64,000 nucleotides of DNA from Candidatus Saccharimonadales bacterium (GTDB lineage: Bacteria; Patescibacteriota; Saccharimonadia; Saccharimonadales; JAGPDM01). The position numbers and the translations under genes are program-made. Of this stretch, positions 2,599 through 58,975 are shown piece by piece (positions within the stretch are counted from its first letter, which is position 1; every line of letters starts with the position of its first letter). Where the stretch lies: assembly GCA_044227985.1 (NCBI GenBank), contig JBGAVT010000003.1, forward strand, positions 20,250-84,249, given 5' to 3'. The notes under the pieces were generated by a model that had not been told where the DNA came from, made no database searches, and saw only the letters and a program-made list of their open reading frames with translations.

Positions 2599-2860
2599 TA
2601 TCCAACACCTCCGAAATACCTTTCTCTCCGTACTGAAGTTCGCGACTTCCGCGACTGATTGTGCCGAGACTAACACCTAGTCGATCGGCTAATTCACGTT
2701 GATTCTGTCCTGCTTTGAGACCTTTGATAATTTGCACACGCAGCGCTACCTCTTCGATTTCTTGTGGTGTTAGAAGATTTGATAACACGCGGCTCATCAA
2801 TGCTACATCTGATACATTTGTTAGTATTTCAACTAGCTCTTTGCTGTATTTATTAATCAT
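2588..2860 (-). CDS. TrpR-family (YerC/YecD-like) transcriptional regulator
   Basis: 90 aa with LLTPQEIEEVALRVQIIKGLKAGQNQRELADRLGVSLGTISRGSRELQYG, the Trp-repressor-family helix-turn-helix pattern. It is the first gene of the trpEGD operon and overlaps the trpE start by 11 nt. Confidence 0.75.
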   Translation of the reverse strand: MINKYSKELVEILTNVSDVALMSRVLSNLLTPQEIEEVALRVQIIKGLKAGQNQRELADRLGVSLGTISRGSRELQYGEKGISEVLDNDV

Positions 2861-2867
2861 ACTTTCG

Positions 2868-2902
2868 ATTATACTTGTTCTATTGTTCTATTGCAATAGA
2901 AC
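2868..2902 (-). promoter_or_regulatory. promoter plus candidate operator of the trpR-like/trpEGD operon
   Basis: Read on the minus strand: -35 TTGCAA (2896-2891), a 17-nt spacer, -10 TATAAT (2873-2868), then ATG at 2860 only 7 nt further on. A perfect 18-bp palindrome GTTCTATTGCAATAGAAC (2885-2902) is centred on the -35. An extra direct half-site GTTCTATT lies at 2877-2884. Confidence 0.6.
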
Positions 2903-2953
2903 ACACTAAAATAATAACATTGACAAAAAATTACATAAGTTTATTGTACAAAT

Positions 2954-3349
2954 ATGAATGATGAGTTTGGATTCAAGGAATTACCAAAAGATCCCGATGG
3001 TCCGTTAATTGATGAAAACCAAGGTCTAGATTCTGAGAGAGTTCTTGTTCAGCCAGAAAATCTGCCACCAATTATTGCAATGACTGGATATGGCGCGACT
3101 CTTTTAGGTGCAATCGGTGCTGTTTGGAGAAATGCACCTGCCAACATTCCATCTGGAGAGGGGCTGGGTCTTTCCCCTGACACACTTGCAACGAAAGGTT
3201 TGTACAGTGCTGGTGCTGTTCTCGCCGTAGCAACGGTTGCAGCCGGTTTTGCCCATATCAGAAATACTTTCCACAATAGGCGCGCTCAACAAGAGGCCGA
3301 TCAACTGGAATCACAAAAGCGCCTTGAAAAAGCAGCCCTCAGGCAATAA
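2954..3349 (+). CDS. hypothetical membrane protein (two predicted TM helices, acidic N-terminus)
   Basis: 131-aa ORF with hydrophobic stretches PPIIAMTGYGATLLGAIGAVW and LYSAGAVLAVATVAAGFA. TTGACA (2921-2926) lies upstream. I recognised no homology. Confidence 0.55.
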   Translation: MNDEFGFKELPKDPDGPLIDENQGLDSERVLVQPENLPPIIAMTGYGATLLGAIGAVWRNAPANIPSGEGLGLSPDTLATKGLYSAGAVLAVATVAAGFAHIRNTFHNRRAQQEADQLESQKRLEKAALRQ

Positions 3350-3483
3350 CATGTTACGTGTCGTTATTTTATAAAAACTCTCAAGATCGGATCGCACCAT
3401 TAAGCAAATCACTTAAAATAATGCGCACTTTGTCTTTACTTAATAGATACCTAACAACATTTATGTATAGTGGAAGATAAGTT

Positions 3484-3897
3484 ATGCCTGAGCAGCCACC
3501 AATAAAGAGATATTTTCTAGACGTTGAAGTCATTTCCGATGATCCTAATGAGACTGGAATTCCTGAATTCGGTGTTACTGGTTCTTGTGATGTTGCTGGT
3601 CGCGAAGTTTCTGAAACAGTTGTACCTGACGACAATCATGAGAAAGTAACATGGGAAGATGTTAGTAGCCATGAAGAACAAGTAAAGGCTACGATTTGCG
3701 ATGACTGTGACGGTTGCGCGATACAATTAGTCACTTTGTCGAGAAAAAGATTTCCAGCGAGTGATGACATTGAAACCGTAGAAGATGCAATCGTAGAGTT
3801 GCTTGAAGCAAAAACCGACAGTGACATGAGTGAGTCTGCACGAGCCGTAGCGGGCAGCTTGCTGCTTGAGATTTTGGGCCTTTTCGATTCTGATTAA
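3484..3897 (+). CDS. hypothetical acidic protein with CDDCDGC motif
   Basis: 137-aa ORF that is strongly acidic. I recognised no family. The overlapping antisense ORFs are shorter and low-complexity. Confidence 0.5.
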   Translation: MPEQPPIKRYFLDVEVISDDPNETGIPEFGVTGSCDVAGREVSETVVPDDNHEKVTWEDVSSHEEQVKATICDDCDGCAIQLVTLSRKRFPASDDIETVEDAIVELLEAKTDSDMSESARAVAGSLLLEILGLFDSD

Positions 3898-4121: not shown

Positions 4122-4907
4122 CTAGACTTCAATACTTACTGGGCAGTGGTCGGAACCAAGTAGGTCTTGGTGGATTTCAGCGAATTTTATGTCTGATTTC
4201 TCTGGTGCAAGCCAGTAGTCGATGCGCCAGCCGACGTTTCGTTCTCGTGCTTTGCCCCAGTTGCTCCACCAACTGTAGGCGTCAATAGTGTCAGGATGAA
4301 GTGTTCGGAAAGTATCGACAAAGCCTTTGTCTAGAATGCCATCAAAGCCACTTCTTTCCTCTAACGTAAAACCTTTTTTGCCTTTGTTCTCTTTCGGTCT
4401 CGCCAAGTCTATCGGTTTATGGGCAACATTGAAATCACCACTGGAATAAACTGGTTTATCACCACTAAGCGAACTAATAAATTCCGCAAAAGCAGGGTCC
4501 CATTTTTGGCGTAAGGGGATTCTGGTTAAATCGTCTTTCGAGTTAGGTGTATAAACCGTCACCACCCAGAAATCAGAAAACTCAGCGGCTAATACCCTGC
4601 CCTCAGTATTTGGATCGCCGTAGCCATCATCAGTTATATTATATTTTTTGGCTAGTTTCTCAGAAAAGTTGCTGATAGTTTGTATCGGTTTCTCTCGGCT
4701 CAAAATCGCTGTGCCGGAATAACCCTTTTTCTCAGCACTATTAATTATAAGGTTGAATCCTGGAATATTGAGTTCGATTTGGTCAGGTTGAGCTTTGGTT
4801 TCCTGAAAGCAAAGAATATCTGGATTTAGCTGATCAAACACTGGTTGCAAGGCTTCTTTTCGCAAAACGGCACGTATTCCGTTGACATTCCAAGATACTA
4901 ATTTCAT
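4122..4907 (-). CDS. xth: exodeoxyribonuclease III (AP endonuclease)
   Basis: 261 aa: MKLVSWNVNGIRA...CFQETK...GDFNVAH...WRIDY...SDHCPV, the ExoIII/EEP family motifs. Confidence 0.92.
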   Translation of the reverse strand: MKLVSWNVNGIRAVLRKEALQPVFDQLNPDILCFQETKAQPDQIELNIPGFNLIINSAEKKGYSGTAILSREKPIQTISNFSEKLAKKYNITDDGYGDPNTEGRVLAAEFSDFWVVTVYTPNSKDDLTRIPLRQKWDPAFAEFISSLSGDKPVYSSGDFNVAHKPIDLARPKENKGKKGFTLEERSGFDGILDKGFVDTFRTLHPDTIDAYSWWSNWGKARERNVGWRIDYWLAPEKSDIKFAEIHQDLLGSDHCPVSIEV

Positions 4908-4913
4908 AACTGT

Positions 4914-4922
4914 AGTATAACA
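4914..4922 (-). promoter_or_regulatory. extended -10 box 6 nt upstream of the xth ATG (leaderless-type promoter)
   Basis: The minus strand reads TGtTATACT-acagtt-ATG. There is no Shine-Dalgarno sequence. Confidence 0.5.
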
Positions 4923-6146: not shown

Positions 6147-6155
6147 TGCTATACT
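6147..6155 (+). promoter_or_regulatory. extended -10 box 8 nt upstream of the pyrH ATG
   Basis: TGcTATACT-gataacca-ATG(6164). No SD. Confidence 0.5.
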
Positions 6156-6163
6156 GATAACCA

Positions 6164-6868
6164 ATGTATAAACGAATTGTTTTGAAACTCTCAGGCGAAC
6201 AATTTCAAGGTTCGCGCGAAAATGGAATTGACCCAGAGTTCTTGCACTGGTTAGCCGATGAAATTAAAAAAGTTCAGGATATTGGCACGCAAATTGTAAT
6301 CATCGTCGGCGGCGGTAATCTTGTACGTGGCGAGAGTTTCTCCAAAAATGGAATCGAGCGAACTAATGCCGATTACATGGGCATGCTGGCAACAATCATG
6401 AATGGCATGGCATTGACTGATGTCTTGGAGCAAAAAGGCCTACAAGCCCGTCTAATGACTCGCCTGCAGGCGAATGAAGTGGCTGAGCCATATATTCGAC
6501 GTCGAGCATTACGACACCTTGAGAAAGATCGAATTGTTATACTTGCTGGTGGAACTGGAAACCCGTACGTAACGACCGACTCTGCTTCAGTGCTAGCTGC
6601 TGCTGAGCTATCATGCGATGCAGTTCTAAAGGCAACAAAAGTTGATGGTGTTTACGACAAAGACCCAGTCACCAATCCTGATGCAGTAAAATTCGACACA
6701 CTCACGCTTCAAGAAACTTTGGAAAATCCAGAAATTCGAGTTATGGATAAATCTGCCATGGCCATGGCAATGGATCAAAATGAGACAATAATTGTCTTTG
6801 ATTTACTCAAAGAAGGCAACATTGCTCGAGTTGCTCAAGGTGAGTCAATTGGCACCACTGTCAAATAA
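6164..6868 (+). CDS. pyrH: UMP kinase
   Basis: 234 aa: YKRIVLKLSGE...IVIIVGGGNLVRG...ILAGGTGNPYVTTDSA...KATKVDGVYDKDP, the amino-acid-kinase-fold UMP kinase motifs. Confidence 0.92.
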   Translation: MYKRIVLKLSGEQFQGSRENGIDPEFLHWLADEIKKVQDIGTQIVIIVGGGNLVRGESFSKNGIERTNADYMGMLATIMNGMALTDVLEQKGLQARLMTRLQANEVAEPYIRRRALRHLEKDRIVILAGGTGNPYVTTDSASVLAAAELSCDAVLKATKVDGVYDKDPVTNPDAVKFDTLTLQETLENPEIRVMDKSAMAMAMDQNETIIVFDLLKEGNIARVAQGESIGTTVK

Positions 6869-6917
6869 TTGTTATATATTTGTATTTAGTTAGTATTTCT
6901 GATATAATAGTAAGATT

Positions 6918-8054
6918 ATGTCTAAAAGACCAGAACAGCTGTGGCTACCCGATCAGCAGGGTCGTTTCCTAGAAAGCGACCCTGCTACTGATGTTATTAT
7001 GGAGCTTAGCGAGAAAATACAAAAGATATTAGACAAAGAGTCCTTATTGTACGATGAAGATTCGACAGAAGTAGAGATCCGTGAGACCGAAGTTACTGAT
7101 GAGCGTGGCGAAAAAGTTAATATGAAGGTTCTGGTTGTACAAGGTGAAGATGACTTAGATGGTTCAGGCATGACATTGATTCAGCCACCCGCATGGACGG
7201 ATGGACCTGACACGAAAGGGGCCTTACGTAGTGCGGTAACATTATCGGTGATGACGGGCTGTACTATCATGATTCCACTATTACCAGGAATGGGCGCAGT
7301 TGGAGCCGACAAAAACGATGGTACGAGGCTAACCAGCCTTCAAAATCAATCACTAGGAAAAGGCTCATACGCTGAGGTTGCAAAGATGCAGTGGCTTGCA
7401 ATGAAACGAGTTGCTTCTGAAGAACTCGGTACAGGTAAACACTCCAACCAAGAAGTTGCATTTTTTGGTTACTCACTTGGAAATCCACAAAATGCAGCTT
7501 TGTTGGCAGAAATCAGCGAAAATATTGATGTCGTCGGAGCAATTTGGGCAGAGAATCCTGACATCGGGTTATCACGAATTCCAGCTCTTGAACTTGGTGA
7601 TTTAGCATTACGCTTAAAGAAAAGCGAGAAAAGTCCTGACCTCTATGGACAGATCAATAACATTGCTAACAGTTGCGATCCAATTCAATATCCGAAACTG
7701 GATTGGAAACGAAATTCAGAGCGTGAATTCTATGAAATGTTATTGCGGGACAAACAAACGTTAAGAAAAGGTCCGGAAGCAGTCGCCAGAAAGTCGGTCG
7801 AACACGATTTAAATACTGCTCGAGAAAGAGAGATTTTAAAGCAATTTGGTCATCTAATAATTAGCGCTGGCAACAGAAGCACTACTCTAAATGGAAGCCG
7901 TATCCTATCAACAATGGTGGGTGAAAGAAATATAATTGGTCGTGTTAAATATCGAGGAGAAGATCACGCAATGAACGATAGTCTTGCTATGAAGGTCATT
8001 ATGGTCCGAGAGTTTTTAAAGCGCACTGGCACTAATCAAGCAACCATTAGTTAA
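6918..8054 (+). CDS. alpha/beta-hydrolase-like protein (GYSLGN nucleophile elbow)
   Basis: 378-aa ORF with G-x-S-x-G (FFGYSLGN) and a late His (GEDHAMND). TGaTATAAT (6900-6908) lies 9 nt upstream of the ATG. Confidence 0.55.
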   Translation: MSKRPEQLWLPDQQGRFLESDPATDVIMELSEKIQKILDKESLLYDEDSTEVEIRETEVTDERGEKVNMKVLVVQGEDDLDGSGMTLIQPPAWTDGPDTKGALRSAVTLSVMTGCTIMIPLLPGMGAVGADKNDGTRLTSLQNQSLGKGSYAEVAKMQWLAMKRVASEELGTGKHSNQEVAFFGYSLGNPQNAALLAEISENIDVVGAIWAENPDIGLSRIPALELGDLALRLKKSEKSPDLYGQINNIANSCDPIQYPKLDWKRNSEREFYEMLLRDKQTLRKGPEAVARKSVEHDLNTAREREILKQFGHLIISAGNRSTTLNGSRILSTMVGERNIIGRVKYRGEDHAMNDSLAMKVIMVREFLKRTGTNQATIS

Positions 8055-8058: not shown

Positions 8059-9045
8059 CTAAGCAAGGATGTCTTTATAAATAGAAATAAGTTTTTTTGT
8101 TGATTTTTCAGTATCGAATCTATTGGCAATAATCTTCGATTTCTTGGTTGCTTCTGCTTGGAAATCATTATCTTTGAGTACTTTATCTACTAATGGCAGG
8201 AAGTCATCATCGCTCTTAGCTGAAGGAAGTTCAGGGAATGTTTTCTCATAGGCTGGGATGTCTCTTAAGATTATCGGTAATCCAATAGCTGCAGCTTCAA
8301 GCACTGAAACCGGATGGTTTTCTTGCTCTGATGGCATAACAAAGACATCTGCATCAGCAAGCATTTTAATTACTTTTTCACGTTCTATAACACCTGTTAC
8401 TGTTAGGTTTTTCGGTGCGTCAGCAATAAGTAGATTCATCTCTCTTCGATTGCTTGCAATGCTCTTAAAATTAATACCGCCAATCCACAAAAAATCATAT
8501 TCTGGTCGTTGCTTTGCCCAGTCTACGAACAAGTCAAATCGTTTTCTGGGCTGGACCTGTCCGGATGAGACTATCATAGGCCGCTTGTTTACTGTGGTGC
8601 TCTTTTTGACGGTTGAATATTTTGCTAGGTTTATACTATTCGGAACATATTCAATTTTATTACGAAAGTTATGCTCGTAGAGGTAGGTCTCAACCAAAGG
8701 GCTTACAGCTACTAAGGTGTCGGCACGAGCGTAGACAAAGTGCAGATAACCAGTAGCAATCCATTTCCAATATTTGGCAAGAATAAATGAGCCAACCAAC
8801 GAGTCTGGCACAACATGCACCGACATAACCGATTTACCTGGAACAAAAAGCATATGAAAAAGTGAGTACAATCCCACGGTGTGATAGTGATTGATATCAT
8901 GTCGTTTCCAAGAATTAACAGATACTATACTAAATATTTTGTTTGTTTTATATGAGTCAACCATATCAGTAAAGGCGCTATGTACACCATGACCTTGAAC
9001 AGTAAATGCTGACTCAGAAACAATATTAATTGTAATTTTTTTCAC
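8059..9045 (-). CDS. glycosyltransferase family 4 (GT-B, Glycos_transf_1-like)
   Basis: 328 aa. The C-terminal half reads PSEQENHPVSVLEAAAIGLPIILRDIP, the typical E-x7-E region of GT4 enzymes. GTG start with TGcTATACT 6 nt upstream. Confidence 0.75.
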   Translation of the reverse strand: MKKITINIVSESAFTVQGHGVHSAFTDMVDSYKTNKIFSIVSVNSWKRHDINHYHTVGLYSLFHMLFVPGKSVMSVHVVPDSLVGSFILAKYWKWIATGYLHFVYARADTLVAVSPLVETYLYEHNFRNKIEYVPNSINLAKYSTVKKSTTVNKRPMIVSSGQVQPRKRFDLFVDWAKQRPEYDFLWIGGINFKSIASNRREMNLLIADAPKNLTVTGVIEREKVIKMLADADVFVMPSEQENHPVSVLEAAAIGLPIILRDIPAYEKTFPELPSAKSDDDFLPLVDKVLKDNDFQAEATKKSKIIANRFDTEKSTKKLISIYKDILA

Positions 9046-9134
9046 CTAGTGAGTATAGCAAAATTATCAATAGTTATATTTTCAAGGCTGAAATTTCAAG
9101 TGAATCAGCAATTTTTACGCTATAATAAAGAATA

Positions 9135-10388
9135 ATGAAAATTGGCTTGTTTACGGATACATATCACCCGGCGGTGAACGGCATTTGCTTCGTGATTGAT
9201 ATAACGCGTAAGCAGCTCGAAGCACTTGGACACGAAGTCTTTATCTTTGCACCTAAGCCCTCAATCCGCTACAAAGAAATAGACGATCATATTCGTCGCT
9301 ATCCTTCGATTCGTGGTGTTGATTGGGAGGAAGATATGACTAGCATATTCTTTCCTCCTCGCGAGGTTCGATATATTCGCAATCTAAACCTCGATATTAT
9401 CCACTTTTTCACCCCAGACCAGGTCGGTCTTCTCGGCGCATATGCAAGTATCAGAAAAGATATCCCCTTAGTTGCTCAGCATAGCACCGACATCATTAAT
9501 TATGCTGATTATTACTCAGGTTACATGAAAGCGCTACTTGCGCTACCGCTGGTAGTTCCAGTCGCACTTCGTGAAATTGCCAAAGATTGGCGGAAGTTAT
9601 TGCCTCGTCTGGAAGAGAAGCGCTTCAGTAAACAGCGAAAGCGAATTACTCAGCAATATCTTGCTGCTCTGTATGGTCGTTGTGACGGAGTAATAGCTTT
9701 ATCTCCACGGATGGATAAGCAGCTGAAGAGCTGGCATGGGAATTTAAGTATGACAATGATTCCAACTGGTGTTGATCCTCTACCGTTTGAAAAAGGTGAC
9801 GTTGAATCGATGAGAAAAGAATTCCAGTTGAGTCCGAAGAATAAAGTAGTTTTGTATGTTGGCCGAATCGTTCAAGAGAAGAACCTTGAAATGCTAATAG
9901 AAGCATTCGCCTTTTTAGTTCAAAAGATTCCAGATGCGAAACTGATGTTCGTTGGCAATGGAGATTATCTTGAAGCCACAAAAGATTTTGCTAGTCAGTT
10001 TTTAGATGAAGATCAGTTTATCTTCACTGGAAATCTTGATCATAATAAACTTGGTGCTATCTATGAGCTAGGGGATGTCTTCGCCTTCCCTTCTTTGACT
10101 GACACGCAAGGACTCGTGTTAAACGAAGCTGCTAATGCTGGTCTTCCCCTCGTGACAGCAGTTGATGATATGAATGAGGTTATCAGCAATAATGAAAATG
10201 GTATGGTCGTGGGAGATTCAGCGAGAGAGTTTTCAAAAGCCTTGTTTGAGATCCTTTCAAGCAAGACGCTATATAAAAAAATGTCTGATAAAAGTCGAGA
10301 CCTAGCTAGTAACTACAGCGCGCTTGAACAGACTAAGATCCTAGTTGATTATTACCACGAAGTTATTGAGCGACACCAGAAGAAATAA
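9135..10388 (+). CDS. glycosyltransferase family 4
   Basis: 417 aa: MKIGLFTDTYHPAVNGI...VGRIVQEKN...FPSLTDTQGLVLNEAANAGLPLV, the GT4 signature. Divergent from the other GT4 gene. Confidence 0.8.
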   Translation: MKIGLFTDTYHPAVNGICFVIDITRKQLEALGHEVFIFAPKPSIRYKEIDDHIRRYPSIRGVDWEEDMTSIFFPPREVRYIRNLNLDIIHFFTPDQVGLLGAYASIRKDIPLVAQHSTDIINYADYYSGYMKALLALPLVVPVALREIAKDWRKLLPRLEEKRFSKQRKRITQQYLAALYGRCDGVIALSPRMDKQLKSWHGNLSMTMIPTGVDPLPFEKGDVESMRKEFQLSPKNKVVLYVGRIVQEKNLEMLIEAFAFLVQKIPDAKLMFVGNGDYLEATKDFASQFLDEDQFIFTGNLDHNKLGAIYELGDVFAFPSLTDTQGLVLNEAANAGLPLVTAVDDMNEVISNNENGMVVGDSAREFSKALFEILSSKTLYKKMSDKSRDLASNYSALEQTKILVDYYHEVIERHQKK

Positions 10389-10944
10389 AACCATTATCGG
10401 TGGTTATCTCGCAACCGCCCCACAGGCCACGATTATTCTCTCGTGCGCTTTTCTCAGCCTGTCTAAATTCATCACTTTTTCCAAACGGAAATGAAGTGTA
10501 GGCAAAACCGTAGCCATCGGCAACTAGCTTTTGATTCCAAAGTGTTCCGTCTTCAAGGTATACATAGCGCAGTAAACGGCTATAGCGATCGATATTGTCG
10601 CCGATCGGATCAGACTCAAGACGAACTTTCTTGCCAAGGAGATTTTTCGTCGTATAGTCGCTGGCGGCTTGGCCGAAACATTGAACCGGTTTTTTCGGAT
10701 GATGCGTTTCAGGTGTATCTACACCGATTAGCCTAACCTTCTCGATTTTTGTGTTGATCTGGACACCGATTGTGTCGCCGTCATAGACTTTGGCGACCTC
10801 AAATTGTCCAGGTGTCGGCATCGGAAGATTTTTCGTAACTGCATTTTCGGGATAATAAGCATCAAGGCCAAAAAACCCAGCGATTACAACTATTAGTAAG
10901 CTGAAAATAAGTTGTTTCTGTTTCTTTGTAAGCTTGAATTTCAT
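10363..10944 (-). CDS. membrane-anchored thermonuclease (staphylococcal nuclease homolog)
   Basis: 193 aa with an N-terminal TM helix, then DGDTIGV...VRLIGVDTPETHHPKKPVQCFGQAASDYT...DRYSRLLRYVY, the SNase-fold motifs. Its 3' end overlaps the convergent GT4 gene by 26 nt. Confidence 0.85.
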   Translation of the reverse strand: MKFKLTKKQKQLIFSLLIVVIAGFFGLDAYYPENAVTKNLPMPTPGQFEVAKVYDGDTIGVQINTKIEKVRLIGVDTPETHHPKKPVQCFGQAASDYTTKNLLGKKVRLESDPIGDNIDRYSRLLRYVYLEDGTLWNQKLVADGYGFAYTSFPFGKSDEFRQAEKSARENNRGLWGGCEITTDNGFISSGVAQ

Positions 10945-11064
10945 TGTTCTAATTTTACACTAGCCTGTTGATATATATAAATCTAGCCTGCGCAACAAAA
11001 CCCTTATGCTTGTAAAACTTCAAGAGAGTAGTATCATAACTAATATAGAGGAGCCTGAAAAGTA

Positions 11065-11851: not shown

Positions 11852-13576
11852 CTAACTTGTAGTCGCTCCTTTATCGGCAGTATTAACTAGTCGTCGGAAT
11901 TTTTCCTGAACACCGCGCGCTGGATTGTTTGGTGAATTTGGCTTATGTGCTGCTTTACGTATTTTCATCTCATCTTCATCGACTAACATTTCAAGACTTT
12001 CATTAGCTGGATCAATAACGATTTTATCACCATCCTCCAAGAGACCTATTGGCCCACCATCATAAGCTTCTGGTGCAACATGACCTATCGCTAGACCTCT
12101 TGTACCGCCGCTGAAGCGACCATCGGTGATAAGTGCAACCTTGTCGTCAATTCCAGTTCCTTTGATGGCGCTCGTCGGCGCGAGCATCTCGCGCATACCT
12201 GGGCCACCCTTTGGTCCTTCGTTTCGTATAATCACTGCATCATATTCTTTGATTTCGCCAGCCAAAATGGCTTTCATGGCGTGCTCTTCGCTTTCAAATA
12301 CGCGAGCGGTACCTTCGAATTTCTTAACTTCATCAACGCCAGCAATTTTGAAGACTGCACCAAGTGGGGCAAGACTTCCCTTCAGTATTGTTAAACCACC
12401 CTCGTCATGAACTGGGTCAGAAAACGGATGGATGACTTCACCATCAGGTTTTGGCGGCTTAATTGCAGCTAAGTTTTCGGCCATAGTTTTACCATTGTAG
12501 GTCAAACAATCACCATGTAGTAAACCTTCGTCAAGCAACATTTGTAGTACGACAGGAATCCCGCCAACCCGGTCAATATCGATCATATGATACTTTCCAT
12601 TTGGTCGAGTATCGGCAATTTGCGGAACTTTTTTCCGGATTTCGTTGAATTTCATGATATCAATATCGATCTCAGCTTCATGCGCAATCGCCATGATGTG
12701 AAGTACAGCATTCGTTGAACCTCCAAGTGCATTGGCCATCATGATGGCATTTTCGATTGATTTCGGTGTGATGATATCCCGAACTGTCATACCACGTTTG
12801 AGTTGCTCGATAACAGCTACTGCTGCTTCACGAGCATAGCCTTCTCGACGATTATCTACAGCGGCAGGGCTAGCACTGCCTAGTACAGAAATACCGAGTG
12901 CTTCGCCAATACTGGCCATTGTGTTGGCGGTAAACATACCACCACAGCTACCATCACCTGGACAGGCATTGCATTCGATTGCTTTGAGCTCATCATCCGT
13001 CATCTTGTCGGCGGCACGTTTGCCGACTGCTTCGAAGACGTTAACAATATCAATATTTTTACCATCTAATTTTCCAGGCAATGTTGAACCGCCGTAGAGC
13101 ATGACGCCAGCGATATTAAGTCGTGCAGGAGCCATGATCATAGCCGGGATTGATTTGTCGCAACCAGCAATCGTGATCAAGCCATCCATTTTTTCTGCTC
13201 GAGCAATTGTCTCAACACTATCGGTAATAACCTCACGGCTGATTAGACTATTTTTCATACCATCGGTGCCCATGCTGATACCATCACTGACGGCGATCGT
13301 GCTAGCGTAGAAACCAAAGCCACCTGCTGCTGTTACACCTTGTCTAGCTGCTACATTGAGTCGTCCACCGCTAATATTGCATGGTGTTACGTTGTTGTCG
13401 GTGTCGATGACAAGAATTTGAGGTTTTTTGAAATCATCATCCTGCATTCCGACTGCTCGGAGCATAGCCCTGGCTGGTGCTCTCTCAAATCCATCAACTA
13501 GTTCGGCACTATTTGGTCGCGCATTTTCTAAATTATCATCACATCCACTACATTTTCCACTTCCATCACACGCCAT
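11852..13576 (-). CDS. ilvD: dihydroxy-acid dehydratase
   Basis: 574 aa: [13 protein letters not shown]...GISMGT...CDKSIPAM...[16 protein letters not shown]...[12 protein letters not shown], the IlvD/Edd family motifs. Its leader is SD-led (GTGGAG). Confidence 0.93.
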
Positions 13577-13611
13577 TTCGTTTCTCCACTTATGTAATGA
13601 CTATTATATCA

Positions 13612-14166
13612 TTAATTTTGAAGCTCTTCGGCCTTAAGCTTATACAAGCTCAAGGCCGCGATAGTTTCACTGTCGGTAATTTCTCCATTCTTTATCATTT
13701 CAAAAATATTTTTGACTGAGGCTTTCTGAATTCCATAAATCCCTTCTTCTGCTTGTTCGATATTCCCAGTTTGTGCTAAATTTCGGGCAAGAAAAATATC
13801 ACCCTGACCACGAATGATGTTATTTGCGCTATGGATAGTGCCAAGAAAATCCCACGTTTTGGCGGTTAGACCTGTTTCTTCTAGTAATTCTCGCTTCGCC
13901 GCATCAACTGAGCATTGCCCATCAGAAGATCCAGCCGGAACCTCAATCGAAATAATATCGTTCGGGTAACGATGAGTTTTAATCAAAATAATATTTTCAT
14001 CTACATCGACAGCAACGATGTAGACAGAAACCTCATTCTCAACTACATAATACTCCCCATTACTACCATCCGGCTTAATAACATCTTCTTTTTTAACCAA
14101 GTAGAACGGGTTTTTGTGAATTATCTTTGAAGAAAGTTTTCTCCATTTTCTCTGTTTATTAGTCAT
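13612..14166 (-). CDS. NUDIX hydrolase (ADP-ribose pyrophosphatase-like)
   Basis: 184 aa with a Nudix box GSSDGQCSVDAAKRELLEETG. Confidence 0.85.
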   Translation of the reverse strand: MTNKQRKWRKLSSKIIHKNPFYLVKKEDVIKPDGSNGEYYVVENEVSVYIVAVDVDENIILIKTHRYPNDIISIEVPAGSSDGQCSVDAAKRELLEETGLTAKTWDFLGTIHSANNIIRGQGDIFLARNLAQTGNIEQAEEGIYGIQKASVKNIFEMIKNGEITDSETIAALSLYKLKAEELQN

Positions 14167-14173
14167 ATTTCTG

Positions 14174-14182
14174 ATTATAACA
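14174..14182 (-). promoter_or_regulatory. extended -10 box 7 nt upstream of the NUDIX ATG
   Basis: The minus strand reads TGtTATAAT-cagaaat-ATG(14166). Confidence 0.5.
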
Positions 14183-15635: not shown

Positions 15636-15692
15636 AGTTTCCACTCCTTAGACTATAATTAGCCTAAGCATAACAAATATGAGTATGTGAAA

Positions 15693-17735: not shown

Positions 17736-17798
17736 AGTATCTAGTATAAACCAGCAAGCTGCTACCTGCTAGAAGTATATAGTTCTAGAGATTGTAGA

Positions 17799-41366: not shown

Positions 41367-41409
41367 GACGGCTAAGTATAACTATCGACGATAGTGCTGT
41401 CGAGTAAAC

Positions 41410-43431: not shown

Positions 43432-43592
43432 ACTTGCTCCTGTTAACTTGCTACTCTTCAGTTTCGCAGACAATCTATACTCCGTCAATTATGGAGATGA
43501 GTGATGATAACACCTCTCTGTTACTAAGTTATCTGTAAAAATGAATAATTATGGTTGAATAGGTCGGTTGAATGCTAAAAAAACTAATACTT

Positions 43593-43847: not shown

Positions 43848-43963
43848 TAAATCAACTATACATTACCCAATACAACAATAAAAGATACCCGGATGGACAA
43901 CTTTTATTATTTAATACAGACTAATAGCAAATTAATATTCAGCCGTACTATCTGGCAGGATGA

Positions 43964-46057: not shown

Positions 46058-46847
46058 TTGCCCCCTCTGTAATTTTTTGTATTGTTTTCTCGATATCCTG
46101 ATGAAGTTCAAGTGCTGCTTGGCGGGGATCTTCAGCGAATATGATGCTTCTGCTGGCAGATATTTGAACACCACCGAGTTGGTCATTTAATCCAGCGCGA
46201 AGTGATTGTTCAAGGTCACCGCCCTGAACCCCGATACCAGGGATTAATAGCGAGGTCTTGTTGCCAGCAAGGTTGCGTATGACTTCTAGCTCCTCGGGAT
46301 ATGTAGCGCCTGCAACCAAGCCTATTGTTGCGTTGACATCGAGCCCGCAAAAACTCTGTACTACACGCTTGTACACTTCTTCTCCTTCGACCACCTGTAA
46401 CTGCATTTCATCGCTACCAGGATTACTCGTACGAGCCAAGATGTATAGCGTCCGATCATATTCATAAAAAGGCGCTAATGCCTCAATCCCCATGTACGGT
46501 TGTAGCGTGACGGCATCAGCAGCTAAATAGTCGAAAACAAACGATGCATAGCCACGATTTGTGTTGCCGATGTCACCGCGCTTGGCGTCTATGATGATAT
46601 ATGTATCTGGGGCAACTTTACGAATGTAGTCACAGGTTTTTTTGAGATTCTCAATACCTCGAGCTCCATCAGCCTCATAAAATGCAGTATTCGGCTTGTA
46701 GCTGCCGGCAATGTCTTTTGTTTGATCAATTATTCGTTTATTGAATTCAAATTGATTAAGTGTTCCAATTTTCTCAATATCTGGGTCTAACCCAATAACT
46801 AGTGCATTTGTAGCAAGTTGTTTCCAGTCAAAATTCTGGGCATTCAT
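46038..46847 (-). CDS. pyrF: orotidine 5'-phosphate decarboxylase (type 2)
   Basis: 269 aa: LVIGLDP...IIIDAKRGDIGNT...LLIPGIGVQGG. TGcTATAGT lies 9 nt upstream of the ATG. Confidence 0.88.
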   Translation of the reverse strand: MNAQNFDWKQLATNALVIGLDPDIEKIGTLNQFEFNKRIIDQTKDIAGSYKPNTAFYEADGARGIENLKKTCDYIRKVAPDTYIIIDAKRGDIGNTNRGYASFVFDYLAADAVTLQPYMGIEALAPFYEYDRTLYILARTSNPGSDEMQLQVVEGEEVYKRVVQSFCGLDVNATIGLVAGATYPEELEVIRNLAGNKTSLLIPGIGVQGGDLEQSLRAGLNDQLGGVQISASRSIIFAEDPRQAALELHQDIEKTIQKITEGANDEQYI

Positions 46848-46922
46848 ATCTGTCTAACTATAGCATAATTGCGGATAGACTCTTCGCTGTTATATCAAAA
46901 TGATATTTGCTAAACTGATTGT

Positions 46923-48005
46923 ATGCAGGGTTTCTACGATCCAGATAAGACTTTTGATGACAATTTTGATAATGGTCCGTTTTTTGATGAAATTCCCGCG
47001 TTAGTTCGTGACGGAAAACCAGTTTTTAATTTTCTTGGACATCCAATTTATTTACCGTTTGGTATTGGGGCAGGTCCGCTGCCAACGAGCAAACACGTTG
47101 CCGCAGCTTTTAAATTTGGTTATGATGTAGTCCATTATAAAACCCAGCGTAGTTATAGCTTTGAGGCAAATGAGTTTCCGAATGTCATACCAGTTGAATC
47201 ATCACACGCTATAAGCCTCGAAGAAGCCGAATCAGGCTTAACAAAAGCTAATTCATATCCCGAAAATCTTTCTGAGCTCGTGATCACTAATTCATTTGGT
47301 AATCCTAGTCGTGGTCCGGACTTCTGGCAGGAAGACATGAAGAAGGCTGTTGAATCGGCCGGTGAAGGTCAAGTAATGGTTGCTAGCGCCGTCGGCTCAA
47401 TTAAAGATGGTTTTTCTGAAGAAGATTATTGGGACGATTTTGCTGCTACTGCTCTACTTTGCAAAGAAGCTGGCGCACCAATTATTGAACTCAATCTATC
47501 GTGCCCAAATGTCGCCAGCGAAGGCGTGGTTTGTTATAACCAAACTGCAGTTATGGAGATTGTGACGCGGGCAAAAGAAGAAATTGGCAATACACCGCTT
47601 TTGATAAAGCTTGGATATTTTGAGCCCAAACAACAAGAACTTCTAGAAAACATTGTTATGGCTGTAGAGCCATTTGTAGCTGGAATTGCCAGTATAAATA
47701 CATTATCGGCAGCAGTGCGCAATAGCGACGGTACACAGGCGCTACCTGGCGAAGGACGATTGAAGTCAGGCCTTTGTGGCGCCGGGATTAAATGGGCGGG
47801 TCTTGATATGGTCCGCCGATTGAGTGAAATTCGTGCCGACACCAGTCTGGAGTTTTCTATCATCGGTGTGGGCGGTGTTATGCAACCGTCTGATTATTTT
47901 GCATATCGCGAGCTAGGCGCTGACGTTGTTCAGTCATGCACTGCGCCGATGTGGAACCCAAATTTAGCACATGAGATACTGAGTGAAATTAGAAGTAATG
48001 TCTAA
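46923..48005 (+). CDS. pyrD: dihydroorotate dehydrogenase (class 1-like)
   Basis: 360 aa: NSFGNPS...IELNLSCPNV...LLIKLG...IIGVGGV TIM-barrel flavoenzyme motifs. TGcTAAACT lies 6 nt upstream of the ATG. Confidence 0.78.
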   Translation: MQGFYDPDKTFDDNFDNGPFFDEIPALVRDGKPVFNFLGHPIYLPFGIGAGPLPTSKHVAAAFKFGYDVVHYKTQRSYSFEANEFPNVIPVESSHAISLEEAESGLTKANSYPENLSELVITNSFGNPSRGPDFWQEDMKKAVESAGEGQVMVASAVGSIKDGFSEEDYWDDFAATALLCKEAGAPIIELNLSCPNVASEGVVCYNQTAVMEIVTRAKEEIGNTPLLIKLGYFEPKQQELLENIVMAVEPFVAGIASINTLSAAVRNSDGTQALPGEGRLKSGLCGAGIKWAGLDMVRRLSEIRADTSLEFSIIGVGGVMQPSDYFAYRELGADVVQSCTAPMWNPNLAHEILSEIRSNV

Positions 48006-49653: not shown

Positions 49654-49712
49654 CTTGATGTCTCCCTGAGAAGAATTTCTGTTATAATTTATGGAAACGA
49701 AAGTGAGGTTCT

Positions 49713-50633
49713 ATGGCATTAGCAAATCGATCATTAGTGGCGATTAACGATTTTGGTAAAGATGAGTGGCTCGAGGTTTTGGATGAGGCTACGGTTATAA
49801 AGCAATCTGGATTAACCTCTCGATCTGATGTATTAAAAGGCAGAATAGTAGCTACCCTCTTCTTTGAAGCTTCAACAAGAACCCGAATGAGTTTCCAAGC
49901 GGCAATCCAAAGACTTGGTGGTGATGTAATCGGTTTTTCGAGCGCATCAATGACAAGCGTTAAAAAAGGCGAAAGCCTAGAAGATACGATTCGTATGGTC
50001 AATGGTTACGCCGATGCCATCGTCATTCGTCATCCTGAAATTGGAGCTGCAAGCCGCGCTCTTGCCGTTTCAGATGTCCCTGTCATCAATGCTGGCGATG
50101 GCGCAAATGAACACCCGACACAGACATTGCTCGATCTTTTCTCAATACAGGAAACTCAAGGCAAACTCGATAATCTGCACATTGGATTTGGTGGCGACAA
50201 TCGATACAGCCGAACTACGCATTCTCTCGTTAAAGCTTTGGCAGCTTTTGATAATAATACGATGGAGTTTATCTCGCCAGATGAGTTGACGCTGCCGCGA
50301 GAACTTCGAGAATTTTTACAAAATAATAGTGTACAATTTTCCGAAACTGATCAGCTTGAAATGGTTCTCGATGATCTTGATACGCTTTATCTTCCTCGAA
50401 TTCAAAAAGAACGCTTTGAGGACCAAGCGGTCTTTGAAAAAGTAAAAAATGTATACCGTTTTGGTCAGGCGCATCTTGATATGACAAAAGAGAACTTCAG
50501 ATTGTTCTCCCCTCTACCTCGTATCGACGAAATCGACACGGCGATTGATGACGATCCCAAGTCGTACTATTTCAAGCAAGCTGCAAACGGTGTGCCAGTT
50601 CGCATGGCTTTACTTCAAAAAATCCTCGGCTGA
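49713..50633 (+). CDS. pyrB: aspartate carbamoyltransferase catalytic subunit
   Basis: 306 aa: FFEASTRTRMSF...HPTQTLLD...LSPLPR. TGtTATAAT (49680-49688) is followed by a 24-nt leader with GTGAGG. Confidence 0.92.
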   Translation: MALANRSLVAINDFGKDEWLEVLDEATVIKQSGLTSRSDVLKGRIVATLFFEASTRTRMSFQAAIQRLGGDVIGFSSASMTSVKKGESLEDTIRMVNGYADAIVIRHPEIGAASRALAVSDVPVINAGDGANEHPTQTLLDLFSIQETQGKLDNLHIGFGGDNRYSRTTHSLVKALAAFDNNTMEFISPDELTLPRELREFLQNNSVQFSETDQLEMVLDDLDTLYLPRIQKERFEDQAVFEKVKNVYRFGQAHLDMTKENFRLFSPLPRIDEIDTAIDDDPKSYYFKQAANGVPVRMALLQKILG

Positions 50634-56181: not shown

Positions 56182-57114
56182 TTATTTTAGATGATTAACA
56201 TCGACAACTTTAAGGCTTTTTTCATCAACTGCGAAGTTATGGTTTTGACTAGTTATTTCAACGATATTTGTTTGGTAGTTCATGACTGGATGATTGGCGC
56301 CGTGATGGCCAAACTCTAGTTTGTAAGTTTTAGCACCGAGAGCGCTACAAAGTAGTTGTTGCCCGAGGCAAATTCCAAAAATTTGAACTTTCCCGAGAAG
56401 CTTTTTAATCGTCTCGATTTGAAGTGCGAGAATGCTCGGATCTCCTGGGCCATTACTTAAAAAGATGCCGTCTGGTTTTAGTGCCAATATGTCGTCAGCT
56501 GTTGTCGATGCTGGCACGACGGTAACCTTTGCGAGGCTCGCCAGTTGTTCGACGATTGAAGTTTTCATACCGTAGTCGATAGCAACTATACGTAAGTCTC
56601 CTTTCCCGATTTTGTTGATTGATTCGTTAGTTACGAATTCAACAAAGTTAAATTCGCTTGTTGCTGGCTCCTCTTTGGCTGCCGCGAGGAGTTGATTGTA
56701 GCTGGCGCGTCCAAATGCAGCATTTTGTGAGCCATGGCTTCGTATATGTTTAGTAAGCGCGCGCGTGTCGATTCCACTCAAAACAGACAAATCGTTCGTT
56801 GTCAGATATCGATCAAGAGACGCTGTGCTTTTAAAGTTGCTTGGAACCAAAGAAAGGTCTCTGACAATAACGCCACGAGCATAGACCTCGTTTGATTCAT
56901 TATCGAGCTTATTCGTTCCGTAGTTACCTATATGTGGATAGGTAAAAGTTATAATTTGGCCAGCGTAGCTCGGATCACTGATAATTTCTTGGTAACCGCT
57001 CATAGAAGTATTGAATACGATCTCACCGCTACTTATGCGCTGCTCTGCTCCGTATAGCGTTCCTTCAAAGCTTCGCCCATCTGCCAACACTAATTGATCT
57101 ATTATCTCGTCCAT
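56182..57114 (-). CDS. carA: carbamoyl-phosphate synthase small subunit, first 310 codons up to an in-frame TAA
   Basis: LVLADGRSFEG...TFTYPHIGNYG...IFGICLGQQLL (nucleophile Cys). The ORF ends VDVNHLK-TAA at 56184-56182. Confidence 0.9.
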   Translation of the reverse strand: MDEIIDQLVLADGRSFEGTLYGAEQRISSGEIVFNTSMSGYQEIISDPSYAGQIITFTYPHIGNYGTNKLDNESNEVYARGVIVRDLSLVPSNFKSTASLDRYLTTNDLSVLSGIDTRALTKHIRSHGSQNAAFGRASYNQLLAAAKEEPATSEFNFVEFVTNESINKIGKGDLRIVAIDYGMKTSIVEQLASLAKVTVVPASTTADDILALKPDGIFLSNGPGDPSILALQIETIKKLLGKVQIFGICLGQQLLCSALGAKTYKLEFGHHGANHPVMNYQTNIVEITSQNHNFAVDEKSLKVVDVNHLK

Positions 57115-57138
57115 CGATTGCCTTTCTTATTTTCAGGC

Positions 57139-57169
57139 AAAAAAATAACACTTCCGCGAGTGAAGTGTT
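57139..57169 (-). terminator. intrinsic-terminator-like hairpin plus U-run inside the carA 5' leader (candidate attenuator)
   Basis: Minus strand: AACACTTC-actcgcg-GAAGTGTT followed by ATTTTTTTG, 24 nt before the carA ATG and downstream of the carA promoter. Confidence 0.6.
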
Positions 57170-57206
57170 TTTGAACCGTCCAATGTATTGTTACCATTGA
57201 GATTTT

Positions 57207-57235
57207 ATTATATTCCGAAAGCTCTATATACGCAA
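57207..57235 (-). promoter_or_regulatory. carA promoter
   Basis: Minus strand: TTGCGT (57235-57230), a 17-nt spacer, TATAAT (57212-57207). Confidence 0.6.
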
Positions 57236-57331
57236 ACGCTATTTTGTGGGAATAAAAGTTTAATCACTAATGCTTACTATGCAATAATACTTTATTGACT
57301 TAGTTATTATATTTATGTATAAATAATACAA

Positions 57332-58975
57332 ATGAGCGCAACTGTTGTAGATCAGCTAGACACAGAATTGACCGATAGGTTGGTGGAGTCTATCAAAAGC
57401 TCGAAAGCTGAAATACTAGACTCAGTCAACTCCCTCTTCGAATCAGATGGGTGTGAAGCTGTTGTTAGAATGCTCAATCCTGGCCTTGCCCTAGATCCTT
57501 TGGATATGGGTGAAGAACTTCCTGGAAGCCTTGTTGTGTTAGACCCAATAGATGACCTTGGAATAGAAGCAACTTTTGCTATTTTCAAGGCATCTGCTCA
57601 AACCACAGAGGAACAGACAAAAAAACCAAAGCGACGAATTTTCAATATAAAATCAAATGATTATGGTCCTGAAGGTAGTCGTAATGATTCTTTTACAGAG
57701 ATTGAAGAGAGCTCCACTTTTGGTGTTTTGATCAGGGGAAATGTATTCTTGCCATTGGTTATTTTCAGCGACGGCCAAACTCTCCCAGAAATTGAGATAA
57801 TAAAATTAGGTACTGACTCAGTCGATCTCGAAGCGGTAGGCGGATCTAGGTCAGTTGAATTACAGCGCGATAAGGTTCTCTTAAGTAAAATTGCAACAGT
57901 AGTTTCTCCAGACAGAAAATCTTTCGATGACAGAGCGGCTATGCTTGCAAATAATGCTGAGCTACGTAGATATGAACCAAATCCACTTTTACTTTCAAAA
58001 GGAAGAAACAATATAGATAGGATGCTCGAGCGAGCGACGTTTGATTTTGGAAACAACGAATTGGTTACAAGATGCCTAGACTTGCTGGAAGCTGAAGAAC
58101 AACTCATTATAGAGGAATCATCTGGTGATTATTGGGAGAGATATCAGGAGATGCTTGAACCACTTGCTTTAATGGCTTTGATATACGAATTTACAGATAC
58201 TGAGCCAACGCCACAACAAGCAGAAATCAACCAAAGAATTATCTCAGCTTATGAAACAATGTTAACAATCGATTTTTATAAAGAACAAATACGGTTTGCA
58301 GACAAGCAACTTAAAAATGATGAGCTTTTAAGAAAAGCAGATAAAAGATTGCGAGATCCGACAAAAGCACTTTTTGACAGATTAGAAGGTATACTACATA
58401 TAAAACAACGCACTCGATCTACACCCAAGATAACTACCGAAGATGTGGTTAAATTTCATGCAGAAAGAATAACTGCCGCAAACGATGAGCCAATAACTTT
58501 AACTGATATATTAAATGTTCTTGATGGAGATAAAAAGCCCGAAGACAGAGTGACGCCTAAAATCGTAAGAGATGCCTTTGTTAGTGAAGACTTCATAAGT
58601 AGTGAAGCTTTGGAGAGGCATGAGAGGATTATGTCTCTCTCAGCTTCGCTTGGGAGATTAGCTGGCGTAGATGGTAGGCCATTGGTTGTAGGAAAGTGGG
58701 AAGGTCATTTACCAGAAGATAACCCACAAGGGACACTTAATTTTCAGTTGTCTCTAAGGCAGTCTGCGGCTGGTTTTCTGGCTGTTTATCATAGTGGATA
58801 CAGTTCAAAAACTGATCCTAAACTAAGTGGTGATCCAGAAAGAGCACTTGAAGTTACACCACGAGGTGTTCGTGCTGGAGAGGTTATGATAAGTTGGTTG
58901 ACTGGAGATCAAGAACGAGAGCCAGGAATTCTGAGACTACTGGAAGAATTTTCGAAGCGTAGTGCTAAAAAATAA
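57332..58975 (+). CDS. large hypothetical protein (547 aa)
   Basis: Long uninterrupted ORF. TGTATAAAT ends 7 nt before the ATG. I recognised no family. Confidence 0.65.
   Translation: MSATVVDQLDTELTDRLVESIKSSKAEILDSVNSLFESDGCEAVVRMLNPGLALDPLDMGEELPGSLVVLDPIDDLGIEATFAIFKASAQTTEEQTKKPKRRIFNIKSNDYGPEGSRNDSFTEIEESSTFGVLIRGNVFLPLVIFSDGQTLPEIEIIKLGTDSVDLEAVGGSRSVELQRDKVLLSKIATVVSPDRKSFDDRAAMLANNAELRRYEPNPLLLSKGRNNIDRMLERATFDFGNNELVTRCLDLLEAEEQLIIEESSGDYWERYQEMLEPLALMALIYEFTDTEPTPQQAEINQRIISAYETMLTIDFYKEQIRFADKQLKNDELLRKADKRLRDPTKALFDRLEGILHIKQRTRSTPKITTEDVVKFHAERITAANDEPITLTDILNVLDGDKKPEDRVTPKIVRDAFVSEDFISSEALERHERIMSLSASLGRLAGVDGRPLVVGKWEGHLPEDNPQGTLNFQLSLRQSAAGFLAVYHSGYSSKTDPKLSGDPERALEVTPRGVRAGEVMISWLTGDQEREPGILRLLEEFSKRSAKK

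Follow-up and report, generated by a model that had tools for sequence, protein, structure and literature searches.

How genes that lack a Shine-Dalgarno (SD) sequence are translated is the question raised by a 64,000 nucleotide (nt) stretch of Candidatus Saccharimonadales bacterium DNA (GenBank assembly GCA_044227985.1, contig JBGAVT010000003.1, forward strand positions 20,250 to 84,249; hereafter the window, in whose numbering coordinates are given). A first-pass annotation proposed that about 22 transcription units of this stretch place a -10 box of the form (TGn)TAnnnT 6 to 9 nt before the start codon, and that leaderless mRNAs coexist here with SD-led genes. All 22 boxes lie where they had been placed, with the claimed gap leading to an ATG, or to a GTG for the minus-strand GT4 glycosyltransferase gene, and the motif itself is present at 21 of the 22 sites, the exception being ORF57332 (57316-57324). 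The list was incomplete and lacked at least four cases, which start at 2954, 10944, 19107 and 30146. We consider it probable from the sequence that these genes are expressed as leaderless mRNAs from extended -10 promoters without a usable -35 element, alongside SD-led genes with short leaders, and the proposed coexistence is supported by every computational test run.

The -10 box and its distance from the start codon

The gene set comprised 62 non-overlapping longest open reading frames (ORFs) of at least 90 amino acids, each starting at the first ATG, GTG or TTG past the in-frame stop codon. This rule takes no account of promoters. The gap was measured in nt from the end of the -10 hexamer to the start codon, with 6-9 as the counted range; chance levels were derived from 1000 dinucleotide shuffles of the 70 nt upstream of each gene, and the binomial p-values assume uniform gaps of 0 to 60. 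The loose motif TAnnnT is found at gap 6-9 in 24/62 genes (shuffles: 9.0±2.6; p = 2.8e-4), and 19 of these 24 (31% of the 62) have a hexamer within one mismatch of TATAAT (shuffles: 2.7±1.6; p = 3.7e-8). The extended form TGnTAnnnT occurs at these gaps in 14 genes (shuffles: 0.63±0.79, with a maximum of 4 in 1000; p = 6e-11), so that 14/24 box genes bear the TG extension. The canonical TGn, one base before the hexamer, is found at 13 of the 22 sites listed previously and at orf222. The histogram of motif-to-start distances over the 62 genes shows a sharp maximum at gap 6 and a shoulder extending to gap 9. Furthermore, 33 strings of the form TGnTAnnnT-N5-10-RTG are present on the two strands, 15 of which end in a gene start, all at gaps 6-9, while none of the nine strings with a gap of 5 does so. 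A start-anchored nucleotide profile, made without motif selection, was uninformative, as the variable gap and the admixture of SD-led genes blur the signal, and 5-mer enrichment was used instead. With no motif preset, the 5-mers enriched at positions -22 to -1 form two families, ATAAT/TATAA/ATACT and GGAGA/AGGAG/AAGGA, with ATAAT observed 18 times (2.5 expected) and GGAGA nine times (0.83 expected).

The same analysis was extended to loci of the Candidate Phyla Radiation (CPR) and to control genomes. Among 368 real starts, from the window and 20 CPR loci, TGnTAnnnT occurs 30, 9, 8 and 9 times at gaps 6, 7, 8 and 9, respectively. The distribution at 1,491 spurious ORF starts inside genes of the window and the CPR loci is flat, with 0-4 occurrences per gap. 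Actinobacterial loci (987 genes), which served as a positive control, reproduced their known TAnnnT peak, with 58 genes at gap 6 and 16 at gap 7, and no peak was observed in 50 kb of E. coli (41 genes), the negative control. These comparisons bear on the notion that the peak arises artefactually, from the A+T richness of intergenic DNA, from stop codons within TAnnnT or from mis-called starts. Loose TAnnnT matches do fall at gap 6-9 in about 9/62 shuffled upstream regions, and a TAA or TAG that heads a gap-6 hexamer is in frame with the start codon, but a mechanical bias whereby such a stop codon sets the ORF boundary is ruled out by the flat spurious ORF starts, obtained under the same rule. 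Together with the excess of TGnTAnnnT over its shuffled expectation, the lack of a peak in E. coli, Pfam domains that open at residues 1-7 and orthologues that keep the arrangement, this renders the artefact extremely improbable; for the complete set it is in effect refuted, and a single weak box may still be due to it.

The elements upstream of the box agree with a promoter. The -35 score of TG-bearing sites (2.43) is at the level of the background (2.51), and that of TG-less sites is 3.27; TG-less sites with a better -35 element include those of orf131 (TTGACA, 16 nt spacer), ORF41366 (TCGACA, 17 nt) and the TrpR-like gene (TTGCAA, 17 nt). In sigma-70 promoters, a missing TG would be expected to be compensated by a better -35 in this way. 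The -10 hexamer of such promoters spans positions -12 to -7, and a gap of 6 hence puts position +1 on the A of the ATG. The published distance rule between the -10 box and the transcription start site (TSS) is 7 bp (PMC12641261), and as the modal gap is 6, a transcript started about 7 nt past the box would begin on the A of the AUG. From this position we infer the transcription start points and the mode of ribosome loading. About 25 of some 68 genes would be transcribed from a sigma-70-type extended -10 promoter (TGnTAtAaT) without a usable -35, each ending 6-9 nt before the start codon. At gap 6 the 5' end of the mRNA would lie on the A of the AUG, and at gaps 7-9 a leader of 0-3 nt would remain. 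Such mRNAs would have no space for an SD sequence, and ribosomes would load on the 5'-terminal AUG or, rarely, GUG. In a second class of genes, the same promoter consensus some 24-31 nt upstream would produce leaders of 18-25 nt that contain GGAG, AGGAG or AAGGAG, while overlapping genes would be served by coupling or by an SD sequence inside the upstream gene. As leaderless promoters would also reside in co-directional spacers of 22-63 nt, most genes would constitute their own transcription unit, with a promoter per gene.

Several points weigh against this proposal. Since about nine of the loose TAnnnT matches at gap 6-9 among the 62 genes arise by chance, boxes that lack a TG and are far from the consensus are individually less certain, as are TG-less boxes that have no comparative support, and the TG-less boxes of ORF43847, the carA leader ORF and the SufD-like ORF may be coincidental. 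Gaps of 8-9 would leave a leader of 1-3 nt on the mRNA. A two-hexamer -35/-10 scan of the window was not enriched over shuffles; standard bipartite promoters were dropped on this account, and the promoter call hence depends on the -10 box and its TG, although the unenriched scan would also fit a genome ruled by -35-independent promoters. Co-directional spacers of 22-40 nt are too short for terminators, and these ORFs must hence also be present, at internal positions and with no SD sequence, in read-through mRNAs. Finally, the only Saccharibacteria TSS set published, that of N. lyticus, which derives from plain RNA-seq, reportedly has unusually variable -10-to-TSS distances (PMC12641261).

Shine-Dalgarno exclusion and conservation in relatives

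The box and the SD sequence are mutually exclusive in the window. An SD core is found in 0/19 box genes (TATAAT with at most one mismatch) and in 16 other genes. Where a gene overlaps its co-directional upstream neighbor or lies less than 20 nt from it, the box occurs in 0/12 cases and an SD core in 4/12. Behind co-directional spacers of 20-99 nt the box is found in 10/15 genes, the box-bearing spacers being 22-63 nt long; boxes in spacers of this length precede pyrH, ORF6918, the NUDIX hydrolase gene, sufB, sufC, leuB, tgt and the PD-(D/E)XK nuclease gene. An Rfam scan of the window returned no family, and a riboswitch or leader RNA is therefore not the reason for the short spacers. A tRNA scan likewise identified no tRNA genes in the window, the G+C content of which ranges from 38 to 44%.

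The closest relative was identified through the tgt protein. A look-up of its exact sequence returned no record. In a collection of genomes at the species level, it is best matched (86% identity) by L001, a "Candidatus Saccharibacteria" metagenome-assembled genome (MAG). The next matches are other CPR/Patescibacteria (47-58%) and Arthrobacter (~50%). L001 is syntenic with positions 23944-43490 of the window (19 kb), at nucleotide identities of 75-86%, and the box and its spacing are kept at seven orthologues, namely tgt, leuB, leuC, leuD, the cobO-like gene, ORF41366 and the PD-(D/E)XK nuclease gene. In the upstream alignments, the DNA around the kept boxes is substituted, gapped or broken by insertions, and the L001 orthologues begin at the same codon as the window genes. 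Upstream of leuC, TGATATAAT is found at gap 7 in L001 and the rest of the upstream DNA has diverged, while leuD likewise has TGATATAAT at gap 7. The leuB gene has TGCTACTAT at gap 7, though its upstream neighbor differs, tgt has TGCTATAAT at gap 6, and the cobO-like gene retains TATAAT at gap 6. The ORF41366 orthologue has TATACT at gap 8 despite an upstream insertion of ~640 nt, and the PD-(D/E)XK nuclease gene has TATACT at gap 6, with an ATG at the position where the window has GTG. In the L001 ung gene, which starts with ATG, the box is TGGTAGTAT at gap 6. For the SD-led clpB, both promoter hexamers and the AAAGGAG are conserved. The insertion in L001 (~2090-2725) moves tkt and the ORF41366 orthologue ~640 nt further apart. 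Behind the L001 rearrangements, both this orthologue and leuB still have a -10 box to themselves, its distance unchanged.

The kept spacing is relevant to an alternative in which the boxes are real promoters of minor or conditional use, and the protein is mainly made from upstream-started read-through mRNAs via re-initiation, 70S scanning or non-SD initiation. The enrichment of terminator-like hairpins is no more than modest, the 22-63 nt spacers in which boxes were found leave too little room for a terminator, and gaps of 8-9 exceed the usual -10-to-start distance, all of which such read-through would accommodate. An exact -10-to-ATG spacing, as it is kept in L001, would however be expected only if the 5' end of the mRNA matters to the AUG, and the box genes have no SD core, yet a third of the truly overlapping genes (4/12) do. 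We therefore regard predominant read-through as unlikely.

Beyond L001, tgt orthologues in the loci L002/L003, L017, L031 and L033 have TGnTAnnnT at gaps 6-9, in L002/L003 before a TTG as the first start. In 19 other CPR loci (289 genes), comprising Saccharibacteria, Paceibacterota/Parcubacteria, Nomurabacteria and Taylorbacteria, TGnTAnnnT occurs 21 times at gap 6, compared to 0-5 times at gaps outside 6-10. The share of genes with a box (TATAAT with at most one mismatch, gap 6-9) is 33/127 (26%) in Saccharibacteria-labelled loci and 20/120 (17%) in Parcubacteria-type loci. SD cores precede 5-10% of the genes in these other CPR loci.

This scarcity of SD cores, the location of the motif at the position of a ribosome-binding site (RBS) and the absence of the anti-SD sequence from some CPR lineages (PMC9297842) would be in line with an A/T-rich element that acts in the RNA rather than as a promoter, that is, a non-SD ribosome-binding or enhancer element of the group B Bacteroidetes type or an S1-dependent one. 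The motif nevertheless matches the sigma-70 extended -10, including the TG one base upstream and the proximity of 19/24 hexamers to TATAAT; the same motif drives leadered genes from ~24-31 nt upstream, and TG-less promoters have better -35 matches. It is also missing from all 12 tight or overlapping gene pairs, where an RBS would still be required, and canonical SD motifs are used in the window, suggesting that the anti-SD sequence is presumably present. An RNA-level element in place of a promoter thus appears quite improbable.

The matches recovered by a scan of metagenome contigs with sufB stem from a mixture of phyla (61-71% identity), with no close relative among them. A -10 box was found before 0/30 of the sufB relatives inspected on these contigs, and several of them are SD-led with GAGGAGG. 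Several of the sufB matches (L082-L084, L095, L098, L099, L103, L108, L123 and L126) span 1.8-2.1 kb with ~455-475 aligned residues, which suggests an insertion, possibly an intein. The closest non-CPR relatives of tgt (loci L018-L080) belong to Arthrobacter and other Micrococcaceae (~50% identity). Cultured Saccharibacteria are known to have actinobacterial hosts, and as leaderless genes abound in Actinobacteria too, gene exchange or a common expression style between the two groups is possible.

Box-bearing and Shine-Dalgarno-led genes of the window

Pfam and NCBIfam assignments agree with the gene names given previously, except for "sufD". The start codon following the 21 motif-fitting boxes is ATG in 20 cases and GTG in one, and at 17/22 of the sites listed previously it is the first ATG, GTG or TTG past the in-frame stop codon. 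As, furthermore, Pfam profiles open at residues 1-7 of the pyrH, xth, leuB, leuC and leuD products, the start codons cannot be moved upstream or downstream. When alternative in-frame starts were scanned, revisions were needed for trpE, tkt and ung only, while the start of the ORF at 14223-15644 is ambiguous between a GTG at gap 7 from TATAGT and an ATG behind AAGGAG.

On the plus strand, pyrH, of the AA_kinase family, has TGCTATACT at gap 8 from its ATG at 6164 (6147-6166), 35 nt downstream of its co-directional neighbor, and the first position of the Pfam profile aligns with residue 3. It is followed after a 49 nt co-directional spacer by ORF6918 (378 amino acids, no family), with TGATATAAT at gap 9 from ATG 6918 (6900-6920). 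The plus-strand GT4 glycosyltransferase gene has a TATAAT without TG at gap 8 (9121-9137; ATG 9135). Both leuC, encoding an aconitase family protein (25705-25724; gap 8, ATG 25722; profile from residue 7), and leuD, with an Aconitase_C domain (28727-28745; gap 7, ATG 28743; profile from residue 1), are preceded by TGGTATAAT. The ung gene, encoding a UDG family protein, has TATCAT at gap 7 from ATG 35044 (35031-35046), its longest ORF starting with the GTG at 35041, and pyrD (DHO_dh) has TGCTAAACT at gap 6 (46908-46925; ATG 46923). The site of ORF57332 (547 amino acids, no family; 57316-57334), TGTATAAAT, is a weak case: the hexamer reads ATAAAT in the claimed register, the alternative TATAAA lacks the final T, and no strict -10 is present at gaps 4-12.

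On the minus strand, the TrpR-like repressor gene (2588-2860; Pfam Trp_repressor, 4e-18) has TTGCAA and TATAAT separated by 17 nt, at gap 7 from ATG 2860 (2858-2896). The xth gene (Exo_endo_phos) has TGTTATACT at gap 6 (4905-4922; ATG 4907), its Pfam profile beginning at residue 4, while TGCTATACT precedes both the minus-strand GT4 glycosyltransferase gene (9043-9060; gap 6, GTG 9045) and tgt (32554-32571; gap 6, ATG 32556). The NUDIX hydrolase gene lies behind a co-directional spacer of 56 nt and has TGTTATAAT at gap 7 (14164-14182; ATG 14166). Located 30 nt past the cytochrome P450 gene, sufB (TIGR01980, 693 bits) has TGTTAAAAT at gap 6 (21567-21584; ATG 21569); sufC, encoding an ABC ATPase, starts 31 nt past leuB and has TTGAAT, a 17 nt spacer and TG-A-TACAAT at gap 6 (23819-23836; ATG 23821). 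In leuB itself (Iso_dh; profile from residue 3), TGGTAGAAT is found at gap 6 (24822-24839; ATG 24824). The cobO-like adenosyltransferase gene has TATAAT at gap 6 (41061-41075; ATG 41063), and ORF41366, which encodes a 77-amino acid membrane protein, has TCGACA and TATACT 17 nt apart, at gap 8 (41364-41403; ATG 41366). For ORF43847, coding for an 84-amino acid membrane protein without family or comparative support, the box is TATAGT at gap 7 (43845-43860; ATG 43847). The pyrF gene (OMPdecase) has TGCTATAGT at gap 9 (46845-46865; ATG 46847), and a 31-codon ORF in the carA leader has TATAAT at gap 9 (57195-57212; ATG 57197).

The four cases added here comprise orf131 on the plus strand (2920-2956), with TTGACA and TATTGT 16 nt apart at gap 6 from ATG 2954, and three minus-strand genes: an SNase-family nuclease gene (10942-10957; TAAAAT, gap 7, ATG 10944), orf222 (19105-19122; TGTTATTGT, gap 6, ATG 19107) and the PD-(D/E)XK nuclease gene (30144-30158; TATACT, gap 6, GTG 30146). 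In five boxes without canonical TGn, the TG directly abuts the hexamer (TG-TAnnnT), namely those of ung (35028-35036), ORF43847 (43855-43862), the SNase-family gene (10952-10959), the PD-(D/E)XK gene (30153-30160) and ORF57332 (57316-57323). The abutting TG may be due to chance, or may represent a displaced form of the extended -10.

The SD sequences that had been reported for trpE, clpB, tkt, atpE, the P450 gene and ORF50702 are all present. On the minus strand, clpB (39042-39104) has TTGACA and TATAAT separated by 17 nt, matching the consensus at 12/12 positions, followed by 31 nt to the ATG and a leader with AAAGGAG. For ilvD (minus strand, 13574-13611) TGATATAAT lies 26 nt from the ATG and the leader contains GGAG, and for pyrB (plus strand, 49680-49715) TGTTATAAT lies 24 nt from the ATG with GAGG in the leader. 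The leaders of these three genes are thus ~18-25 nt long behind the same -10 consensus, and leader length looks bimodal, at ~0 or ~20 nt, rather than broadly spread. In trpE (minus strand, 2596-2612), GGAGGTG is located 7 nt from ATG 2598, within the 3' end of the TrpR-like gene. The AGGAG of tkt (minus strand, 43429-43441) lies 5 nt from ATG 43431; the TTG at 43488 that opens its longest ORF is a wrong start, Transketolase_N opening at residue 25 of the long ORF. In atpE (plus strand, 60702-60717), GGAAGGAG is found 5 nt from ATG 60715. Both the P450 gene and ORF50702 have GGAG upstream. In ORF50702 a TATAAT at gap 11 overlaps the GGAG, and a better promoter, TTGACA and TATTAT 17 nt apart, is located 22 nt upstream, the transcript of which would include the SD sequence.

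Own promoters had also been proposed for sufB, sufD and leuD as genes within apparent operons. This does not hold for leuD, as two genes on the opposite strand (27133-28454) lie between leuC and leuD; with upstream neighbors on the opposite strand, an own promoter is unavoidable and not surprising. Within the leuC-leuD interval (25722-29345) these genes occupy 27133-27792 and 27861-28454, and one of them has a type IV pilin N-methylation motif. Unrelated genes lie between the suf genes, the order being leuB, sufC, P450, sufB, a convergent phosphatase-family gene, orf222, orf181, the SufD-like half, sufS and sufU. The "sufD" (17232-17735) named in the first-pass annotation is not a whole gene; its 167-amino acid product corresponds to the C-terminal half alone (positions 124-268 of the 275 of the sufD profile). 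Its box is TATACT at gap 7 on the minus strand (17733-17748; ATG 17735), and is adjoined by a hairpin and T-run at 17751-17772. Upstream in the same frame lies a 181-amino acid ORF without family match (17232-18344, minus strand, for the two together), separated from the SufD-like half by a 63 nt spacer that contains two in-frame stop codons and a hairpin. The region may represent a gene that has been split, a pseudogene or a pair of separate genes.

Potential regulatory sites accompany several of the boxes. A perfect 20-bp palindrome, TGTTCTATTG/CAATAGAACA (2884-2903), with a third half-site at 2876-2885, overlaps the -35 and spacer of the TrpR-like promoter and faces the divergent orf131 promoter. 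The palindrome is unique in the window, even when three mismatches are allowed, and is probably an operator for autoregulation, and hence for control of trpE/trpG, which are coupled downstream. The start codons of the divergent pyrF and pyrD are 75 nt apart (46848-46922), with two extended -10 boxes back to back, and a short hairpin between the boxes (46871-46887) may be a shared regulatory site. In the carA leader (57102-57212, minus strand), the TATAAT promoter is followed by the predicted leaderless 31-codon ORF (57197-57102), which runs through a terminator-like hairpin (57169-57147) and a ATTTTTTTG run and overlaps the carA ATG at 57114. The leader looks like an attenuator and, by analogy with pyrBI-type attenuation, its layout would tie termination to leader translation; the fold of the leader overall is no more stable than that of shuffles (z = -0.97). 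The window is rich in biosynthetic genes, including leuB/C/D, ilvD, trpE/G, pyrB, a pyrC-like gene, pyrD/E/F, carA/B and the suf system, and also encodes a cytochrome P450, a transketolase and an F-type ATP synthase. Saccharibacteria are usually described as auxotrophic. The leuB, leuC and leuD genes are present in L001 as well.

Relation to known leaderless systems and significance

The architecture as such is known. Genes with TAnnnT, the first T of which lies ~12 bp before the start, have been described as TA-led and read as leaderless (Zheng et al. 2011, PMC3160421); they account for ~19% of genes in Actinobacteria and ~39% in Deinococcus-Thermus, with a TG peak in low-G+C genomes (PMC3160421). 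GeneMarkS-2 assigns genomes with a Pribnow box 6-8 nt from the start to its group C, which is common among Actinobacteria and within Deinococcus-Thermus (Lomsadze et al. 2018, PMC6028130). The window resembles these systems in the TAnnnT box at this distance in a large share of the genes (31-39% here), in the spacer without SD sequence, in the presence of SD-led genes in the same genome and in the modal gap of 6, which was also obtained for the actinobacterial control. It differs in the 42% G+C of the genome, in belonging to a Saccharibacteria/CPR lineage, in its near-consensus TATAAT, mostly with TGn (14/24 box genes, compared to 0/80 in the actinobacterial loci), and in that the boxes are also found in co-directional spacers of 22-63 nt and not only before the first genes of operons.

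Likeness to other systems is more limited. The extended -10 promoters of E. coli and Gram-positive bacteria share the TG one base upstream of the -10, and the -35 scores in the window, at background for TG-bearing sites and higher for TG-less ones, are consistent with a -35 that would be dispensable here too. Classical examples drive leadered mRNAs, whereas the element here is set such that the transcript would start at the AUG. Archaeal (group D) genomes also combine many mRNAs without a 5' untranslated region (UTR) with SD-led internal genes, but their TATA box lies ~26 nt from the start (PMC6028130), in contrast to the bacterial -10 at 6-9 nt in the window. The non-SD RBS genomes of group B, mostly Bacteroidetes and the wider FCB (Fibrobacteres, Chlorobi and Bacteroidetes) group, similarly have many SD-less genes with an A/T-rich motif just before the start. 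Their motif, however, also precedes operon-internal genes and cannot be a promoter there (PMC6028130), whereas the box in the window is found in 0/12 tight pairs and matches the sigma-70 -10 with its TG.

Neither TM7 nor other candidate phyla are mentioned in the texts of PMC3160421 and PMC6028130, and a literature search linking leaderless mRNAs to Saccharibacteria, Patescibacteria, CPR or TM7 found nothing beyond incidental citations. A study of CPR ribosomes reports the loss of the anti-SD sequence in part of the Parcubacteria and does not discuss leaderless mRNAs (PMC9297842), and a preprint on the TM7x transcriptome has no TSS, UTR or promoter content. As such, the mechanism is not new, while its assignment to this lineage appears to be undescribed in the literature searched; what is new here is the lineage and the flavour of the system, with extended -10 boxes, low G+C content and promoters gene by gene.

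Whether leaderless initiation from extended -10 promoters is a clade-wide, hitherto undescribed major mode of expression in Saccharibacteria and other CPR/Patescibacteria is a broader proposal, which we put forward tentatively, as possible rather than probable. If true, this mode would cover ~17-39% of genes, as in Deinococcus-Thermus, with promoters placed gene by gene even in spacers of 20-60 nt, and would be a plausible counterpart of the reduced CPR ribosomes and of the anti-SD loss in some lineages. The trait would possibly be common to the actinobacterial hosts, which could ease the expression of exchanged genes.

If leaderless expression is confirmed, the calling of gene starts in CPR MAGs would need a leaderless (group C) model, as SD-based callers would misplace starts, and for the newly tractable Saccharibacteria, TGnTATAAT followed by 6 nt and an ATG could be almost all that an expression cassette needs. 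It would also provide a testable answer to how translation is initiated with reduced ribosomes and, in some lineages, without an anti-SD sequence. A low-G+C, small-genome lineage would thereby join the known distribution of leaderless genes, which would bear on the ancestry of leaderless initiation in Terrabacteria-side lineages.

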